Below are positions 3,215 to 59,060 of a stretch of DNA of 64,000 nucleotides, piece after piece. The DNA lies in NCBI GenBank assembly GCA_964016885.1, contig OZ024755.1, positions 10,478,001 through 10,542,000 on the forward strand, given 5' to 3'. The translations under genes and the position numbers were made by a program. Within the stretch, counting starts at the first letter, position 1, and each line of letters starts with the position of its first letter. This DNA comes from Eledone cirrhosa (taxonomy: Eukaryota). The notes under the pieces were generated by a model. That model did no database searches and was not told where the DNA came from. It saw nothing but the letters and a program-made list of their open reading frames with translations.

Positions 3215-3310
3215 TTACTTTGCCTTTCATCCTTACGGGGTCGATAAAATAAAGTACCAGTAATGCGCTGGGTAATTGCTGGCCTTGTGCCTAAAGTAGA
3301 AATAATTATT
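3215..3310 (+). mobile_element. SINE family A, 5'-truncated
   Basis: CTTTTGCCTTTCATCCTTACGGGGTCGATAAAATAAAGTACCAGTAATG...GCCTTGTGCCTAAAGTAGAAATAATTATT, near-identical to the 3' half of 39175-39367. Confidence 0.85.
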
Positions 3311-3746
3311 AATTAAAATAAGGTTTTTAAGAAATTCAACGAACATACCTGTATAATTAAATGACAGACGATCTACACTAAAAATTTATCATGGGAAATC
3401 AGTCTGCCATTCATTAATATGCTAATTGGTCTTGTATGAATTAGAATTCGATAGAAATACTTTCAAATCAATGCTGCTGCTACTACTACTACTAAGCAAC
3501 ACCAGTAATAGTAGTAGTAGTAGTAGTAGTAGTAGCAACAGTCTTTCATTCTCATAATTAAGATTCTCTAGCCTACCAAAAATAACAATATATATATAAT
3601 TGTCTATATACATGGTGTGAGGGGGGGATATATATACATATAGAAATATTGTATATAAATATTTTATATGCGTATATTTGTATGCATATTAGGTGTATAT
3701 TATCATTCAACTAGAAGTAACATGCATGTATATATATATATTATAT

Positions 3747-3933
3747 AACGAAGGAAATGTGGTAAGGAACCAGGTGGACCATAACGCACCAAATTACTCA
3801 ATACTTAAGATAGTAGAGTGGGTAATAGGAACAGGTAAGACCCCGACGGCTGAGCTCAAGCCGTTTCGACGGAATTAGCCAGAATTAGCCGTCGAAACGG
3901 CTTGAGCTCAGCCGTCGGGGTCTTACTTGTTCC

Positions 3934-3935
<2 letters not shown>
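3747..3935 (-). mobile_element. Palindromic TA-inserted element family C (Penelope-like derived, partial hammerhead)
   Basis: Inverted arms 3826-3872/3889-3935 plus an ~80 bp unique tail shared with 8430-8618. Flanked by (TA)n. Confidence 0.8.
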
Positions 3936-3969
<34 letters not shown>

Positions 3970-4020
3970 GGAACGTGTGTAGGTAGATAAAGTGTTGTCT
4001 ATGTATATCCGGCAAGGATG

Positions 4021-4179
4021 TTTAAACAAGAAAGTTGCTTACCATTTATATCCATCGTATATATATATGTATATATATATATAGGAACGAGTAGGACCTC
4101 GACGGCTGAGCTCAAGCCGTTTCAACGGCTAATTCTGGACACGTTATGGTCCACCTGGTTCCTTACCACATTTCCTTTG

Positions 4180-4219
<40 letters not shown>

Positions 4220-6080: not shown

Positions 6081-7641
6081 GATATACGATCGATATAAAT
6101 TTAAATAGTATATGTATGAGTGTATGCGTGTTCGTGTGTGAGTTTACGCATATTAAATAATGATATTTACACTATACTAATGTATTGAGTACCTTTTTAA
6201 CTGTGGTTCCTCACGAATCCCTCGGTATATAACCCCCTCATATACATACATATATAATCATGAATATCCATGGCCAATAGGCAGTTTCGCTTGAGGAAGA
6301 GGTAGAACTTTTGGAGACGTAGTGATAATAAGGTAGGCTGGTGAAAAACACCTGGTTTTATGGTTTGAGTGCTTGCCTTCTTAGGGTTTAATACATTTCT
6401 GAAGAAGTGAACTACTAGCAGGAATAGTTTAGTTATTGTAGGAAAGATGTAGTGGATTAGTTAATTCACGCTGAATAATCAACCGCCTCTCCAGTTCTAA
6501 AAGTATATTATATTCCAATACCAATGAATTTATGCTGACACATGAACATTTATAAAACAATATCACATATAGATATTCAATTATTGACAAAAATGACATG
6601 TTCATGAAATTTTCTTTCAAATTAATTCTTGAAGAAGAAAGTAAAACAAAAAATATTTCAAAAATATTTTATATTATAAATATATTTTTGTACTTTATTA
6701 CAATATTTTCACTTTGTAATGGCTAAGAAAAATCGATTTACAGATTGAAAGTAAGCAAACTTTATGTTTCGTTAATAAGATGTCAGGAACTACTTATTTC
6801 ATATCAACATGTCATTACGTGGTGACAGCCTGGTTATTACATAACGTAGACCTAATACAGTATATAATAGGCTTCTTAGCTTACAGTTAAAAAGTCGATT
6901 AAAAAAACCAATGGCTCAGAAATACTGTAATCGGCAGATCTGCAACAGTTCTGCTATTGACGTGTAAGGTACTAAATAAAGGCTTGTGACATGTTTATTG
7001 TTCGATTCACTGCTGCATACCCACCATCTCACGCAACCAATATATAGATATAAAGTCAACAAGCAGGTCTATATGAGTTCACTTGGCTTATTAGAAATAG
7101 CAGCCAAATTACTTAATTCTTTATTAAACAATTACCGTTCTCCGCGTTAACGATATGATAGTATGCATGAAATGTTATCAATGTTAAACATTGAATAACG
7201 AAGCATTTTATACACAAAATGACGTTGGTAGAACTCTCATGAATGTGGCGACATCTTTGCTCGATCATTGCTGACCTGAGTGTAAACGACATCAGCAACT
7301 ATATCAAGATATGCATTAAAACAAACTTTTAACAATGAATTATTTGGCATTTTGCGATCCACCCTTGAACTTCATGCAGCTGTCTCATACGAATACTTCA
7401 GCTGAAAGTACAAGAAATTGTATGTATATATATATAAGTATGTATACGTACATACATATATGTATACAGACGTACAGTAGTATGTATATATATACACATA
7501 CATGCACACATATATATATGTACGTATGGATTCACCGAACATTTATTATAATGCTCGATTTGTTTGTAAACAAACATCCCGAATTAAGCCGTACAGTGTT
7601 TAGGAACCATCGTTGCCCTTTTGTTCAACACCGACAAAGGA

Positions 7642-7684
7642 ACGATGTACTAGTTTCAAGCTTATTAGCTATCGTCAACACCGT
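7642..7684 (-). ncRNA. Minimal type-I hammerhead ribozyme motif
   Basis: Minus strand ACGGUG|UUGACGA|U-AGCU-AAUA-AGCU-U|GAAA-CUAG-UA|CAUCGU: 6-bp stem I, stem II, palindromic stem III, GUA cleavage triplet. Core has U3 with G8. Confidence 0.6.
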
Positions 7685-8044
7685 ATACCTTCCTGTCAGG
7701 TGATTGAACATCTGAAAGTATATACTTTCCTTATGCATATTAACAGCTGAGCAGCCTAATTTGCATATCGAGTGAGTTAATCGGCCGGGCGCACCGAAAA
7801 CGATAAATGGAAACAATGAAACGAAACGTATGTACACATATATGTATCTACGTATACATACTTATATTTAAGTAACAGCCGTACTATAATCAACAAATGA
7901 AATTTCGTTTCATTTTTCCCATTTATCGTTTTCGGTGCGCCCGGCCCATTAACTCACTCGATATGCAAATTAGGCTGCTCAGCCGTTAGTATGCACAAGG
8001 AAAGTATATACTTTCAGACGTTCAATCATCTGGCAGGAAGGTAT

Positions 8045-8087
8045 ACGGTGTTGGCGATAGCTAATAAGCTTGAAACTAGTACATCGT
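8045..8087 (+). ncRNA. Hammerhead motif, mutated copy (UUGGCGA core)
   Basis: Mirror of 7642-7684 with an A6>G change. Confidence 0.5.
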
Positions 8088-8356
8088 TCCTTTGTCGGTG
8101 TTGAACAAAAGGGCAACGATGGTTGCTAAACACTGTACGGCTTAATTCGGGATGTTTGTTTACAAACACACCGAGCATTATAATAAATGTTCGGTGAATC
8201 CATACGTACAGTAGTATATATATATACATACTACTGTACGTCTGTATACATATATGTACGTACGTATACATACTTATATTTAAGTAACAGCCGTACTAAG
8301 AGTGAGAAATGAAATTTTGTTTCAATTTTTCCTTATATATATATATATATATATAT

Positions 8357-8378
8357 ACACTTCATAGACGATGTACTG

Positions 8379-8433
<55 letters not shown>

Positions 8434-8615
8434 AACGAGTAGGACTCCGACGGCTGAGCTCAAGCCGTTTCGACGGCTAATTCTGGATTAGCCGTCGAAA
8501 CGGCTTGAGCTCAGCCGTCGGGGTCCTACTCGTTCCTATTACCCACTCTACTACCCTAAGTATTGAGTACTTTGGTGCATTATGGTCCACCTGGTTCCTT
8601 ACCACATTTCCTTCG

Positions 8616-8655
<40 letters not shown>

Positions 8656-8677
8656 CAGTACATCATCTGTGAAGTGT
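8357..8677. repeat. 26-bp inverted repeat around a (TA)n core
   Basis: ACACTTCATAGACGATGTACTGCAAT (8357-8382) versus ATTGCAGTACATCATCTGTGAAGTGT (8652-8677), 2 mismatches. Confidence 0.8.
8430..8618 (+). mobile_element. Family C palindromic element, best-preserved copy
   Basis: ~50-bp inverted arms. Contains GAAACGGCT-TGAGCTC-AGCCGTC (hammerhead stem III plus GUC, 8497-8519), then an ~80-bp tail. (TA)n on both sides. Confidence 0.85.
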
Positions 8678-8879
8678 CGTGTACAGTACCTATCAGAGTA
8701 TATGTTTTGTCATTCAATGCTGGACATATTTATCAAATATTAACTCAAAGCTGATATGTCCACGAAATCAAGAGATACTTAAATCGATAATTTGTTAGTC
8801 TGCCAGCTGATGTGCCCATGCAGGTTTCATGTTCACTTATATCAAAGAGAATTAATTATATAACGGATCAAATCCATCG

Positions 8880-21726: not shown

Positions 21727-22279
21727 AAGGGAAATTCCCCGGCACAGTAAAATATCTGTATTGTGAAGTGTGTGCTTACAGTCCTCTGTGTATTAATTTA
21801 TCGATCAGAACTGTATCAACTTAAAACCACAGTCGTACCCGCTCACTTTCACATGTCATCTCTTTCCGCCAATGCCCTTTGTATACATATATATACACGC
21901 AAACACATTCACACACACCTATATATATATATATATATATATATATGGTGGCTGCCAACTCGTTTTCGAGTACGGCCACTACTTTATATCCATGTAGGAG
22001 AACCCCTACTGATGCGCTGAACGAGTGTGACTTTTTAGTCCAGCCAGCGACTTGAAAGCTCTGGTACAAACACTACACTTGTGACAATTATTGACACATA
22101 GTGCTGGGCCCATGGTACCATGTGACGACAAGTGCAGAGAGATCTCCAGATATAAAGCAATGCCTGTGCCGTGAAGCTTTTATAGTGAGCAAAGGCACTG
22201 CACAAAGCCAGTCCCACTCTCTTAACCAAGATGATATTTACCAAAAAGAAGAACAAGTCAACATCATTGGATACCATCA

Positions 22280-22861: not shown

Positions 22862-23707
22862 GAGGTGTGTCAGAAAAGTTCCAGGACTGATGTCACAAAA
22901 GATTTATTTCAAACCCAAACTTCACACTAAGAGTTTTCTCCTTCAAAGTAGCTGTAATCTTAACTCTCTGCAGGGATCAAACTTTTTTCTTCACAATTTT
23001 ATATACATGTCCTCTGTTTCAGGTCGTCAAGCAATGATCACAGAGCAACGAACGGTTGGGGAAAACTCCGTCAGAAGCATTGGGATTGCTGCAGCAAGTG
23101 TATGGAGATGAGACAATGTCACGCTCACGTGTTTTTGAGTGGTGCAAGAGATTTAAAGCAGGACGCGAGGACGTGGAAGTTGAACCCATGACTGAGGTCA
23201 ACGTTGAGCGCGTCAGGCAGATGGTGCGTAGCGATCGTCGACTGTCGGTTCGACTGATGGCATATGAGCTGGGCATGAATCGGGACAGCGTCTGGAAGAT
23301 TCTCACTGAAGATTTGGATATACGGAAAGTCTGCGCGAAGATGGTGCCAAAACTGCTGAACGATGACCAGAATGGTCGACGCATGCAAGTGTGCCAGGAC
23401 ATCCTCGAGCGTCTTGAAACCGAACCAGACTTGCTAGGACAGTCATCACCGGTGATCGATGCTCAAGGGGGTCATCAAGGGGACCCGTTTTGAAGACGTG
23501 GACGACATCAAAAAGGACGTGACGGCGGAACTGCGGAGGATCCCGGAAGAATCCTTCCAGGAGTGCATGCAAGCGTGGCAGAAAAGGATGGAAAAGTGCA
23601 TTAGACACCATGTGGATTATTTTGAAGGAGAAAATTCTTAGTGTGAAGTTTGGGTTTGAAATAAATCTTTTGTGACATCAGTCCTGGAACTTTTCTGACA
23701 CACCTCG
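22861..23707 (+). mobile_element. Non-autonomous Tc1/mariner element, 847 bp
   Basis: TIR CGAGGTGTGTCAGAAAAGTTCCAGGACTGATGTCACAAAAGATTTATTTCAAACCCAAACTTCACACTAAGA at both ends, extending to ~90 bp with 2 mismatches. TA flanks within (TA)n. Confidence 0.95.
23030..23641 (+). pseudogene. Mariner transposase pseudogene, catalytic domain deleted
   Basis: HTH region [51 protein letters not shown] (WVPHEL-like), frameshifted VITGD joined directly to LKGVIKGTRFEDVDDIK...WQKRMEKCI...YFEG. Confidence 0.92.
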
Positions 23708-24025: not shown

Positions 24026-25130
24026 ATACTCCTACACAGCTCAAATGGTGCAGATAAAATCTTCCATACATAATACACTGACACATACACACATCCGGAC
24101 ATTCATATACACACATAACAAACACGCGTATACATCACATACACAAGATATAAACAATACACACAGCCACTCGATGCACCTCAACAACACACATACATGC
24201 CAGCATCACTGATAGACCGGGTCACACCTCGGCCACTTCTCCACTCTATTAGAGTACCCCATACCCCCATAAGCCTATTTCATATATAGGATTTTCATGA
24301 ATGCCAATGACTATTTGTTTCAATGAATTTAGATGTATTTTGTAAAATAAGTAAATATATTATGAAAGTGATGTTTGGAAACTACATTAACGGTGTTCTT
24401 TCTTATGTAAAATTATGATAGACGTTGTTTTGTATTATATAACGACAATTTCAGGCTCTTGTCCTCAAAAAGGTTAAATTTTAACTAATACATCTAGGCG
24501 GCAACCATGCTAGTCTCAATGATAACGCTATCTCTGAGAATAATTCATACTGTATATATTTCGTTGTAGATTTGAATTAAACAAAACAGTGAAGCTAAAT
24601 ACCTATTCTTATCGATTTCATTTGTATATATTGGGCGATCTATTTATTCGTTAATTTCTTTCAATATGATCAATGTTGACAGAAGAAAGGGAACAATAAG
24701 GGAAGAAAACAGTCACATAATTATTCATAGCCACGACAAGCGTCTGTCTAGGCAGTCAATTTTGATCATAATACCACGAGAAATTATTGCCAAATTCGCC
24801 ATATTGCTTAAGTTTTGTGTGGTCTTAATGTAAAGTATTTTATTATTTTGCTATTTGTCTTCAATGAATAATCACGAACAGACGTGTGTGTGTGTGTGCG
24901 TGCGAATGAATATATATATATATATGGGCGTCTGTGAAAGCGTGTGACTTTGTATGTGTTTGTCGTATCATGCTGGTTGTCTTCATATTTTTCGACAAAA
25001 GAGATCTTCCTGGAACGAATCGACAAACATACTTCATTACTTAATTTTCTCATGCTTCGTATTTATTCAAATTCAAATTCCTGTTAACATTTATTTGTAA
25101 TATTCTAATAATCACTAATATTCGTATACA

Positions 25131-25413
25131 AAATAATTGTTTCTACTTTTGGCACAAGGCCAAAAATTACCCAGTACATTACTGGTACTTTATTTTATCG
25201 ACCCCGTAAGGATGAAAGGCAAAATAATTGTTTCTACTTTTGGCACAAGGCCATCAATTACCCAGTACATTACTGGTACTTGATTTTATCGACCCCGTAA
25301 GGATGAAAGGCAAAGTTAACCTCAGCGGGATTTGAACTCAGACCGTAAAGGGACGTAACTATACTGGAAAGCATGGCGTCCGACTCTCTACCGATACTGC
25401 CAATCCACACCCG
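25131..25413 (-). mobile_element. Nested SINE family A pair (truncated plus full length)
   Basis: Truncated 3' half at 25131-25222 followed by a full copy. TSD GATGAAAGGCAAAATAAT at 25211-25228 and 25416-25433. Confidence 0.9.
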
Positions 25414-39947: not shown

Positions 39948-40248
39948 TTGAAGTTTTTTTTTACAAAATGAAAAATAACCGAGGTCTCCTAAACGAGTGA
40001 AAGTATAAAGAAAAAAAGATGAAATCGAAAATGCAACTGGAGTCTTATTTTTAAAAAATATATATATTTATTTGGTTCCTTTACCGGTTTCGCAGTTCTT
40101 CTGTGAGAAAAACCACAGACCCTCCATCTCAATTCTAGTTTTGAAAAGCAGAAGAACTGCGAAACCGGTAAAGGAACCAAATAAATATAATATATTTTTT
40201 TAAATAAGACTCCAGTTGCATTTTCGATTTCATCTTTTTTTCTTTATA
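39941..40248. mobile_element. Fold-back element with ~100-bp arms and hammerhead
   Basis: Arms 40004-40103/40149-40248, 45-bp spacer, ~60-bp one-sided tail, in (TA)n. Related fragment AAGACTCCAGTTGCATTTT near 63010. Confidence 0.82.
40133..40176 (+). ncRNA. Minimal type-I hammerhead ribozyme motif, U3-A8 variant
   Basis: UUGAAAA (40141-47)|GCAG-AAGAA-CUGC|GAAA-CCGG-UA (to 40170). Stem I is weak (UU/AA, possibly extended across a bulge). Confidence 0.65.
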
Positions 40249-40932: not shown

Positions 40933-41204
40933 AAGTAAGCAAGTGTTGGTAAAATCCAGTACTTCAGTTTGCGGATAGGGAGCACTCAACGAAGATATAA
41001 GTTCCGGAGTTATAATAGTGACAAAACATAAGTCAATTGCATGAACTCATAATCCTTATATTTACTGCTATATATATTTCGATGATAGCCATTGAATGGC
41101 TATGCCTGATGAGGTCATAGCCATTCAATGGCTATTATCGAAATATATATAACAATAAATAAAGGATTATGAGTTCATGCAATTGACTTATGTTTCGTCA
41201 CTAT
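40933..41204. mobile_element. Fold-back element (190-bp palindrome) centred on a hammerhead core
   Basis: Near-perfect palindrome 41015-41204 with CCTGATGAGG at the centre, ~80-bp one-sided tail, TA flanks. Confidence 0.82.
41103..41154 (+). ncRNA. Minimal type-I hammerhead ribozyme motif, canonical core
   Basis: UGC|CUGAUGA (41106-12)|GGUCAUAGCCAUU-C-AAUGGCUAUUAUC|GAAA-U-AUAU-A-UA. The opposite arm gives GCA after the cleavage site, which pairs with UGC. Confidence 0.65.
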
Positions 41205-41539: not shown

Positions 41540-41543
<4 letters not shown>

Positions 41544-41673
41544 AACGAGTAGGACCCCAAGGGCTGAGCTCAAGCCGTTTCGACGGCTAATTCTGGACTA
41601 AAAAATACTATTTTTTTAGTCCAGAATTAGCCGTCGGTTACGGTCCACCTGGTTCCTTACCACATTTCCGTCG

Positions 41674-41676
<3 letters not shown>
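41540..41676 (+). mobile_element. Family C element retaining the long central hairpin
   Basis: GACGGCTAATTCTGGACTAAAAAA-TACTAT-TTTTTTAGTCCAGAATTAGCCGTC, then a deletion into the tail. In (TA)n. Confidence 0.85.
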
Positions 41677-42920: not shown

Positions 42921-43707
42921 CTAGGGCGGGTAAAATTGCTGAGATCCATGGATAAGTTCTTTCCAGCGGTCTCCGTCCCTCATTATCGCTGCCCTGTCCA
43001 GCGTCTCCAACAGACCAGTGTGTGTCCTTAGGGCATCAACATACGTTAACCTTGGTCTTCCTCTTCCAGTGTGTCCATGTAGGGGCTCCCTCAGGAGGAC
43101 TGAGTGCAATGTCAACTCTGAATGTCGGTGAGCATGTCCAGCTAATCTCAGTCTCCTCTGTGTCACTTTTGAGCTGACTTTTGGGAGGCTCCCATACAGC
43201 TCTGTTTTTCATCCTCGGTCTATACTGATTAATGTTCAGAGCCATCCTCAGCATTCTCGTGTAGCACCCATCCACCATCTGAGTGAGTTTCTTGGTCAGT
43301 GTCCAAGTCTCAGACCCATACAGCAGCACAGACTCCACTACAGCAATGAAGAGGCGGATCTTCAGGTCTTTACGTAGGTCCGAATTCCACACCGATCTCA
43401 AGCTGTGGCACGCCGCCCAGAGCAGGAGAGTTAAGGCGAAAAAGATATCAGATGCTGAATTTGCCGACGACATAGTTTTGGTGACAAATACAGTGAAGGA
43501 GACAGAGGATTTGATGCAGGACGTTGAGACTGTGTCGAGGAGTGTGGGCAGAGAATGAATGAGACTAAAACAAAATGTCTGGTAGAGAATGTTGAGAAGC
43601 CAGAGGGGATCACTAATGTAGGCGGGAAACCGCTAGAATTGGTTGAGGACTTCCTGTATTTGGGAGCAAAGATTGGGAATACGGAAGATGATGTAGTTGA
43701 GAGGAAG
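42921..43707 (-). mobile_element. RTE-clade LINE, 5'-truncated with 5' inversion, 10-bp TSD
   Basis: Minus 43420-42921: WAACHSLRSVW..KIRLFIAVVESVLLYGSETWTLTK..RRLRLAGH..GRGRPRLTYVD..stop. Plus 43421-43707: EFADDIVL..MNETKTK..VEDFLYLG..DVVERK. TSD AGACATCCTT at 42911-42920 and 43708-43717. Confidence 0.93.
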
Positions 43708-44518: not shown

Positions 44519-45111
44519 TTAGTTACATTGGCAACCATTTGTACGAACTAATATGTAAATTGCTTCTGCTACGTGATAGAACTATGGAAAGCGAAAAACA
44601 AATAGTTGGGATATAATTTCACTCCATGAAAACAACGTTTTCCTATTATGTATGTTAGCTAAATCAGTTTTGTCAAGTCAAACACACCTCATGGGAAAAT
44701 TTAAATTCTGCAGTGAAGCCAACTACGAATTTGTCAGTTATACTGTGAGCCATGTTAACAACGTTAACAATGACGAAATACATTTTATCTGTACATGATA
44801 CGTATGTACAAGGTGGACAGCACAAATTATGTGACTTTCTTACGGCCTTCTACACAGCGCTTATCTAGTGACATTGTAAGAATAATCGATTATTGGATCA
44901 CAAATAGCAGATTCGAAATTCGGTATTATGAATATGATTTCGGTGTTTGAGCACACATACACTTATGATAGATCTGACAGAAAAATATGCGATTATATAT
45001 CACCATGTCGGTATGTAATTCAAAAGGCCTAATCCTACAGAGGATGAAGAATCACTTCTATATAACTTGAATGAATGATTGTATGGAACAAAATGTAGAT
45101 ATTCCACTATG

Positions 45112-54982: not shown

Positions 54983-55527
54983 CACATAAGATTTTGTACA
55001 AGATTCTACAATATAATTTACGTGTGGACGTTCAGTGAATCTATTTTTTCTTTCAGTTTTACATTCTGCCAACGAAACATTTCGAGAATTAGAAATATTT
55101 GTAAAAGGAGGGGATAGTGTCTGTAATAAGATTAAGATGAGAAGGAGAAAGGCAAGAATAAGAGTAAGTGTCAAAAATAGAAGCTGAAAAGGTTTACTAC
55201 ATGTGGTTGATATAGAACGATATCATCTCCCGTGATATTATTATTGTCGATATTGTCATGACTGTTTGCATTATCATCACCACAATCACTATTCGTAAAG
55301 GTATCAGGATCATTGTGATCATCATCTTCGTCATCATTTACCCACCCGCCACCATCATCAGTATCGTCCCCATATTATTCACAGCATCATCATCTTACCA
55401 CAACTACCTGTCCTAATGTAGTCCCGGGCTGAGAAACAAGGAAGGCGGAAACTGCACAAGTCCATTGTACATACATATATTAAACACACACACACACACG
55501 TTTGTATCTCTCTCTCATATATATATA

Positions 55528-55674
55528 TAGGAAAATGTTTAACCCCGACGGCAGAGTTCAAGCCGTTTCGACGTCGGGGTTAAACATTTTCCTATTACCC
55601 ACTCTACTACTCGAAGTATTGAGTACGTACTCTGTTGCGTTATGGTCCATCTGGTTCCTTACCACACTTCCTTC

Positions 55675-55679
<5 letters not shown>
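55528..55679 (+). mobile_element. Family C element, diverged subfamily
   Basis: Arms TAGGAAAATGTTTAACCCCGACG / CGTCGGGGTTAAACATTTTCCTA, with the shared tail TTACCCACTCTACTAC...GGTTCCTTACCAC. In (TA)n. Confidence 0.85.
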
Positions 55680-57843: not shown

Positions 57844-59060
57844 TTCTCCTTGCTCTCCTCTTCTCATTGCTCTCCTTTCTCTCCACTTCTCATTGCTCTC
57901 CTTGCTCTCCTCTTCTCATTGCTCTCCTTGCTCTCCTCTTCTCATTGCTCTCCTTGCACTCTTTGCTCTCCTCTTCTCATTGCTCTCCTTGCTCTCCTCT
58001 TCTCATTGCTCTCCTTGCACTCTTTGCTCTCCTCTTCTCATTGCTCTCCTTTCTCTCCACTTCTCATTGCTCTCCTTGCTCTCCTCTTCTCATTGCTCTC
58101 CTTGCTCTCCTCTTCTCATTGCTCTCCTTGCTCTCCTTGCACTCCTCTTCTCATTGCTCTCCTTGTTCTCCTCTTCTCATTGCTCTCATTGCACTCCTCT
58201 TCTCATTGCTCTCCTTGTACTCCTTCTCATTGCTCTCCTTGCACTCCTCTTCTCATTGCTCTCATTGCACTCCTCTTCTCATTGCTCTCCTTGTTCTCCT
58301 CTTCTCATTGCTCTCCTTGCACTCTTTGCTCTCCTCTTCTCATTGCTCTCCTTGTACTCCTTCTCATTGCTCTCCTTGCACTCCTCTTCTCATTGCTCTC
58401 CTTGTACTCCTCTTCTCATTTCTCTCCTTGTACTCCTCTTCTCATTGCTCTCTTTGTTCTCTTCTCATTCCTCTCCTTGCACTCCTCTTCTCATTGCTCT
58501 CCTTGAACTCCTCTTCTCATTTCTCTCCTTGTACTCCTCTTCTCATTGCTCTCCTTGTTCTCCTCTTCTCATTGCTCTCCTTGCACTCCTCTTCTCATTT
58601 CTCTCCTTGTACTCCTCTTCTCATTTCTCTCCTTGTTCTCCTCTTCTCATTGCTCTCCTTGTTCTCCTCTTCTCATTGCTCTCCTTGCACTCCTCTTCTC
58701 ATTTCTCTCCTTGCACTCCTCTTCTCATTGCTCTCCTTGTTCTCCTCTTCTCATTGCTCTCCTTGCACTCCTCTTCTCATTTCTCTCCTTGTACTCCTCT
58801 TCTCATTTCTCTCCTTGCACTTCTCTTCTCATTGCTCTCCTTGTACTCCTCTTCTCATTTCTCTCCTTGTTCTCCTCTTCTCATTGCTCTCCTTGCACTC
58901 TTTGCTCTCCTCTTCTCATTGCTCTCCTTGCACTCTTTGCTCTGCTCTTCTCATTGCTCTACTTTTTCTCATTGCTCTCCTTTTCTCATTGCTCTCCTTT
59001 TATCCTTGCTCTCCTTTTATCCTTGCTCTCCTTTCCTCATTGGTCTCCCTTCCTCCTTGT
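57844..59060. repeat. Pyrimidine-rich ~26-bp tandem minisatellite (CTCCTCTTCTCATTGCTCTCCTTGCA)
   Basis: Direct inspection. Explains the Leu/Ser-rich ORFs in all three plus frames. Confidence 0.95.

Follow-up and report, generated by a model that had tools for sequence, protein, structure and literature searches.

Architecture of the insertion

The window, which is the whole 64-kb stretch of DNA analysed here, is animal-type DNA that is rich in AT and laden with microsatellites. Between positions 7429 and 8332 it contains a 0.9-kb stretch in which a short non-coding repeat with a hammerhead-like motif is present in two copies arranged head-to-head. The left arm (7429–7826, minus strand) is an inverted, 5'-truncated copy and forms the counterpart of 7903–8282 on the plus strand. 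Over their full length, the arms differ by 16 substitutions in 380 aligned columns and by a single 18-nt indel, which coincides with a local palindrome that is private to the right arm (8195–8250, plus strand). The ungapped core of the arms (7510–7826 and 7903–8219) is 317 nt long and 95% complementary, with a spacing of 76 nt that corresponds to an unpaired inter-arm spacer (7827–7902). Inverted arms of about 390 bp had been proposed in an earlier reading of the sequence alone (referred to below as the sequence-only reading), and our alignment confirms them. RNA editing was considered as a source of the differences between the arms and dropped, as these differences have mixed polarity and two of them fit CpG decay.

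The plus strand also contains a direct repeat of 95 nt, referred to as DR1 (7826–7920) and DR2 (8238–8332), with a period of 412 nt and 13 substitutions between the two; BLAST stretches this repeat to 101 nt at 85%. The sequence-only reading had detected the same repeat at 7849–7919 and 8261–8332 with a length of about 70 bp, which underestimates its extent, and had derived a period of about 410 bp, in agreement with the 412 nt found here. DR1 is an upstream partial unit, or pseudo-LTR, whose 5' end abuts the inverted truncated copy (7826–7429, minus strand) at the head-to-head joint, and DR2 forms the 3' end of the insertion. The plus strand holds 1.23 units in total. One period (7826–8237, plus strand) is non-coding, has a GC content of 38% and folds far better than shuffled sequences (z about -6).

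The two ends of the insertion are asymmetric. A tail of about 50 nt (8280–8332, plus strand; 50–53 nt depending on the choice of boundary) is found at the right end only, where it is followed by (TA)n. The left arm has no 3' tail and lacks about 50 nt relative to the right end, and its 3' end points outward into a short (TA)n, so that the 3' ends of both arms face TA runs. TA runs flank both ends of this insertion and also those of the third copy described below, although (TA)n is very abundant in the window, which weakens the argument that it was the target. Within these flanks a target-site duplication is unreadable.

A third copy of the family lies at 60993–61301 on the minus strand, with the element proper at about 61014–61301. 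Its 5' truncation falls within the helix II loop; the copy retains GAAACUAGUA, has (TA)n on either side and stops at the same long 3' end as DR2, including the tail of about 50 nt. DR2 differs from this unlinked copy at 5 of 95 positions and from its tandem partner DR1 at 13 of 95. Among the three copies, DR1 has 10 private changes, DR2 has 3 and the third copy has 2. As the locus at 7429–8332 is the only one among the window copies that covers 7921–8063, a native repeat unit of 412 nt is putative.

No reverse transcriptase (RT) or GIY-YIG domain was found by Pfam in or near the element among the 169 stop-to-stop frames of at least 55 amino acids that passed a complexity filter. A frame of 67 amino acids at 7901–8101 had no Pfam match, and an antisense frame of 89 amino acids had no homolog (0 matches among 1 candidate).

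A hammerhead-like motif in each arm

The hammerhead-like motif occurs twice, once per arm, and these are the two complete copies available. The plus motif (8045–8087) reads ACGGUG UUGGCGA UAGCUAAUAAGCUU GAAACUAGUA CAUCGU, with U3 and G6 in the core and a predicted cleavage site at 8081/8082. The minus motif (7684–7642) matches it except for the core, which is UUGACGA (7678–7672; U3 and A6), and has its predicted site at 7648/7647. The single motif of the sequence-only reading, with UUGACGA and cleavage after 8081, thus merged the core of the minus copy with the site of the plus copy. Both motifs have a helix I of 6 bp that includes one G·U, a helix II of 4 bp over a U·U opposition, and a palindromic helix III of two pairs (ACUAGU). 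Position 1.7 is a U in both, and a long helix closes each motif. The type-I layout is complete, with three helices in order, GAAA, A15.1-U16.1 and H17.

Both motifs deviate from the consensus at two positions, with a U at position 3 opposite G8 and with U10.1·U11.1. Instead of the consensus core C3 U4 G5 A6 N7 G8 A9, they contain UUGACGA (minus) and UUGGCGA (plus), A6G being a further core deviation of the plus motif only. The R-Y closing pair G10.1-C11.1 is replaced by U·U, although the PLE (Penelope-type element) register would allow an A-U pair with a bulge. A strict type-I scan of the whole window with CUGANGA gave 0 matches. Rfam identified no hammerhead in the whole window at the gathering threshold, nor among the 107 matches with E ≤ 10 in the region 7300–8800, where hairpin or low-complexity models scored below gathering. 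None of the locally shuffled windows (sets of 30 and 100) gave a motif with a helix I of at least 6 bp and a helix II of at least 4 bp; these nulls are optimistic, as the descriptors were composed after the motif was known.

The hammerhead is closed by an extended helix I (8020–8106, plus strand). The two differences between the arms that fall inside it (8029 and 8033) both preserve pairing, changing C-G to U·G and A-U to G·U. In a single arm, helices I and II have predicted pairing probabilities of 0.79–0.99 and helix III has 0, which is also its value in the monomer; the duplex formed by the helix III palindrome has -6.8 kcal/mol. In a transcript of the whole locus, the predicted pairing probability of helices I and II is 0.

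In several respects the motif resembles the PLE hammerheads aligned in Fig. S3 of PMC4209133. That alignment has the consensus CUGANGAH and contains variants with a small palindromic helix III as well as an example from the hemichordate S. kowalevskii with UUGAAGAA; this PLE-associated motif also has U3 with G8. U10.1·U11.1 is itself a reported natural hammerhead variant (PMC3088659). The combination of U3·G8 with U10.1·U11.1 is not reported in the accessible portions of the hammerhead-variant literature examined, which was no dedicated search. For the U at position 1.7, a contact with loop II has been proposed (PMC11875169). With a helix I of 6 bp, a helix II of 4 bp and U1.7, the geometry is the canonical one of retrozymes, unlike that of minimal PLE motifs. 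At position 6, a change of A to C strongly reduces cleavage in Mg2+ (PMC7151607); A6G is absent from the variants tested in the available text of PMC3088659, PMC4209133 and PMC7151607.

The motif is a genuine hammerhead homologue. We infer that the minus copy would have weak activity, and that the plus copy, with G6, is likely crippled and has lost activity. The description of a well-formed hammerhead in the sequence-only reading is therefore correct as to the existence of the motif, which is even present in both arms, and overstated as to its form, given U3·G8, U10.1·U11.1 and G6 in the plus copy. The copy with the cited site at 8081 has a core change (A6G), and the minus copy keeps A6.

Template and route of integration

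The insertion has the structure that has been described for EN+ PLEs, which consists of a partial tandem, an adjoining inverted 5'-truncated copy, a tail at one end and (TA)n targets (PMC8557442, PMC3846280). At 7429–8332 we find a partial tandem with a pseudo-LTR, an adjacent inverted 5'-truncated copy, a one-ended tail and an AT-rich/(TA)n target. Together with a type-I hammerhead that has a small palindromic helix III, these features are shared with insertions of Penelope/Poseidon and Neptune (the structure also with Naiad), including non-autonomous derivatives that contain the pLTR only (PMC8557442, PMC3846280, PMC4209133). The locus differs from these insertions in that it contains no RT/GIY-YIG ORF, in its tail of about 50 nt instead of the 30–40 nt in print, and in a helix II that lacks G10.1-C11.1. 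A Penelope signature had been suspected from the repeat structure, and it is strengthened by the tail at a single end, by the flanking (TA)n and by the 3' end in common with the third copy. No autonomous partner element was encountered, and it is solely the structure of the insertion that points to PLE enzymes. As no RT or GIY-YIG frame is present in or near the element, it would have been mobilised in trans by the RT and the GIY-YIG endonuclease of a PLE.

PLE families are present in Octopus vulgaris, and the accessible text of PMC13282606, which reports them, makes no mention of ribozymes. We found no relevant match to six short motifs from the window, three of them from the 412-nt family, in the Naiad/Chlamys/Hydra supplement of PMC8557442, in which line-wrapped sequence can mask matches. 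A link to octopus Naiad elements was rejected, as no motif matched in that supplement and Naiads have no canonical hammerheads.

The in vitro behaviour of a lizard PLE accounts for the anatomy of the locus. In that system, AT-rich DNA is cleaved and both strands are extended, two adjacent internal RT start sites define the tail, and uncleaved RNA is the main substrate, with hammerhead activity being dispensable (PMC11167929). At 7429–8332, an endonuclease would have cut AT-rich (TA)n DNA, after which reverse transcription from a fixed internal start (8332) would have proceeded over 507 nt to 7826, across the hammerhead site. As the cDNA spans the cleavage site, a cleaved linear monomer is excluded as the template. 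The inverted copy may have arisen from a second start, about 50 nt upstream, that was primed on the opposite DNA strand, or alternatively by self-priming on the first cDNA. The copies would then have drifted about 4% apart, with the plus hammerhead gaining A6G. In its present state, the locus is probably a dead end. As there is one hammerhead per strand, excision of a monomer is impossible here, and for read-through RNA a hairpin of about 380 bp is predicted that abolishes the hammerhead helices.

We therefore favour, with a probability of about 0.58, a reading in which the locus is a non-coding, retrozyme-like passenger of Penelope machinery, whose template was probably a linear RNA that had not been cleaved and exceeded one unit in length. 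The short element is neither an autonomous PLE, for which a telomerase-like RT with a GIY-YIG ORF would be expected, nor an established retrozyme.

The most serious competitor is the model of the sequence-only reading, in which a non-LTR retrozyme circle of about 412 nt, released from a tandem array elsewhere, served PLE machinery as a template for 1.23 rounds, followed by inversion. Much of the unit agrees with it. Metazoan non-LTR retrozymes (mussel, coral, axolotl) are non-coding units of a few hundred nucleotides with a GC content below 45%, high self-pairing and one type-I hammerhead of canonical size (PMC7229834, bioRxiv 10.64898/2026.07.22.740005), and the unit found here has 38% GC and one hammerhead of canonical type-I geometry (PMC4209133), in which U10.1·U11.1 has natural precedent. 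Its circular minimum free energy is -122.8, compared to -86.4 ± 6.0 for shuffled sequences (n = 60; z -6.05), and 63% of it is paired. With 412 nt, it lies slightly over the range of about 170–400 nt for animal retrozymes, among which those of mussel measure 350–390 bp (PMC7229834). A preprint further proposes that retrozymes derive from PLEs as non-autonomous elements, and counts many monomers among their copies (bioRxiv 10.64898/2026.07.22.740005), and a cDNA that runs across the cleavage site is what a circular template would give. What is missing from the window is the array. A retrozyme is recognised by a minimum of two units in succession that each have a complete hammerhead (bioRxiv 10.64898/2026.07.22.740005), whereas this locus has 1.23 units, one motif per strand and a core that is off at two or three positions. 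Head-to-tail arrays, for which the sequence-only reading had proposed to search, were found in the 64-kb window neither by TRF (period up to 500) nor by nhmmer, and the unit length is not among the ten best-supported periods of 150–1000 nt in a k-mer scan. In addition, the two core deviations common to both arms would predict weak cleavage. Among predicted retrozyme dimers, 8 of 9 failed to cleave in vitro (bioRxiv 10.64898/2026.07.22.740005).

The direct repeats provide a further argument. If one circle had been copied repeatedly, DR1 and DR2 would have been identical at insertion, so the 13 differences in 95 positions, 10 of them private to DR1, count against a circle. The direct repeats have diverged more than the arms (13/95 compared to 16/380; Fisher P = 0.0015), although 6 of the 13 differences fall in one block of 8 nt (7887–7894), without which 7/87 positions differ (Fisher P = 0.17, binomial P = 0.07); counting the block as one event gives P = 0.03. 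Homogenisation of the arms may also have followed the insertion, so that the baseline of divergence would be too low. The argument against the circle is thus modest, and on balance the evidence favours a linear RNA that was not cleaved and came from a master whose neighbouring units had diverged. Together with the 1.23 units, the single hammerhead per strand and the lack of an array in the window, it makes the circular monomer of about 410 nt copied for more than one round, as considered in the sequence-only reading, a secondary possibility. The stronger proposal of a true retrozyme family whose double-variant hammerhead (U3·G8 and U10.1·U11.1) is functional, with a circle of about 412 nt and the full Penelope integration signature, is doubtful.

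Three other explanations do not involve a retrozyme. The locus could belong to a long autonomous PLE and represent its 3' end, in which case a 5'-truncated fragment of 412 nt would follow a 95-nt fragment of a second, diverged template and the 412-nt unit would be accidental. PLE insertions are indeed mostly 5'-truncated partial tandems (PMC8557442), DR1 resembles a different subfamily, and the third copy is a plain truncated 3' end. However, coding similarity is absent upstream of the hammerhead, with negative results for the 67-amino acid frame (7901–8101) and the antisense frame of 89 amino acids, and the left arm continues across the 7920/7921 junction and at 7918 shows the consensus base, unlike DR1, which is a matter of one nucleotide only. 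We regard this explanation as unlikely, although the coverage of 7921–8063 by this one locus leaves room for it. The long inverted arms without an ORF are also reminiscent of a MITE or foldback DNA transposon, in which the hammerhead-like string would have arisen by chance. Such an element would have symmetric terminal inverted repeats on every copy, whereas here the ends are asymmetric, a direct repeat lies inside, (TA)n is found at the 3' end of both arms and the third copy is single-armed and truncated with the same 3' end, which makes this origin very improbable. Finally, the region is rich in microsatellites and inverted PLE structures are known to cause trouble in assemblies (PMC8557442), so that a fold-back artefact of assembly or amplification was considered. 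As the arms have diverged by 16/380 substitutions and the 18-nt indel, a simple fold-back artefact is ruled out, and family-specific ends recur throughout the window, leaving an artefact of any kind hardly credible.

The basis for the proposed Penelope-driven movement of animal retrozymes has so far been shared hammerheads, co-occurrence and pLTR similarity (PMC7229834; bioRxiv 10.64898/2026.07.22.740005), and a retrozyme-sized unit with a PLE tail and an inversion would supply insertion-level evidence for mobilisation by PLEs. If a functional retrozyme family were indeed present here, the integration of retrozyme RNA by PLE enzymes would be proven directly by structure. Literature searches listed no report of a retrozyme in octopus and no description of a retrozyme with an inverted copy, Penelope and a tail. 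The main text of PMC7229834 never uses the word "inverted", and in the available text of bioRxiv 10.64898/2026.07.22.740005 it occurs in a reference title only and "tail" does not occur. A comparison of the DR1/DR2 type over many copies would be a cheap test to distinguish a circular from a linear template. The locus itself is ordinary, being one decayed copy of a pattern that is present in four families in these 64 kb, and a Penelope-type insertion of this sort is already well known and commonplace in the window.

Other inverted insertions and repeats in the window

Three further families in the window form similar inverted insertions that contain half of a hammerhead. The second family is found at six loci as inverted insertions in (TA)n (8432–8617, 3745–3935, 4081–4181, 41541–41675, 55527–55677 and 60575–60743). 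It has two fixed 3' ends that lie 81 nt apart, a feature that speaks for the PLE passenger reading of 7429–8332, with short ends at 3933, 4084, 8432 and 41542 and long ends at 4181, 8617, 41675 and 55677; the count of short ends omits 3 of 7 pattern matches, two of which are unrelated and one of which, at 3970–3981, is of doubtful status. The hammerhead of this family is represented by its 3' half, in which helix III is long (GAAAC-GGC...GCC-GUC, with a palindromic loop), and several of its inversions are centred in helix II. A 26-nt inverted pair (8357–8383 and 8652–8677) borders the (TA)n runs around the second-family insertion at 8432–8617. At 40004–40248, an inverted pair with arms of 100 nt (93%) and TA ends contains the 3' half of a hammerhead (GAAACCGGUA) in each arm. 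A further inverted insertion at about 41041–41178 has an intact CUGAUGA core, a long helix II and GAAAUAUAUA; here the inversion replaces the 5' strand of helix I.

The window also contains repeats and remnants of other kinds. A fragment of a mariner-type transposase lies at 23038–23490 on the plus strand (Pfam HTH_48, E 4e-7), and the remnant of a LINE-like retroelement ORF lies at 43039–43632 on the minus strand (DUF6451). Homologs of the latter have RT domains, and its only named eukaryotic match is from a ctenophore, with 58% identity. Weak Pfam matches below the curated cut-offs, to a C2H2 zinc finger (22009–22179, minus strand) and to a phosphatase N-terminal domain (44580–44795, plus strand), may be due to chance or represent exon fragments. 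A short interspersed repeat occurs in nine copies, at 3223, 12374, 25193, 25284, 36119, 37544, 39280, 44063 and 60008, and includes a tandem pair of 91 bp at 25129–25314; we take it to be reminiscent of octopus SINEs. A CT-rich satellite with a period of 26 bp and about 40 copies occupies 57845–59048.
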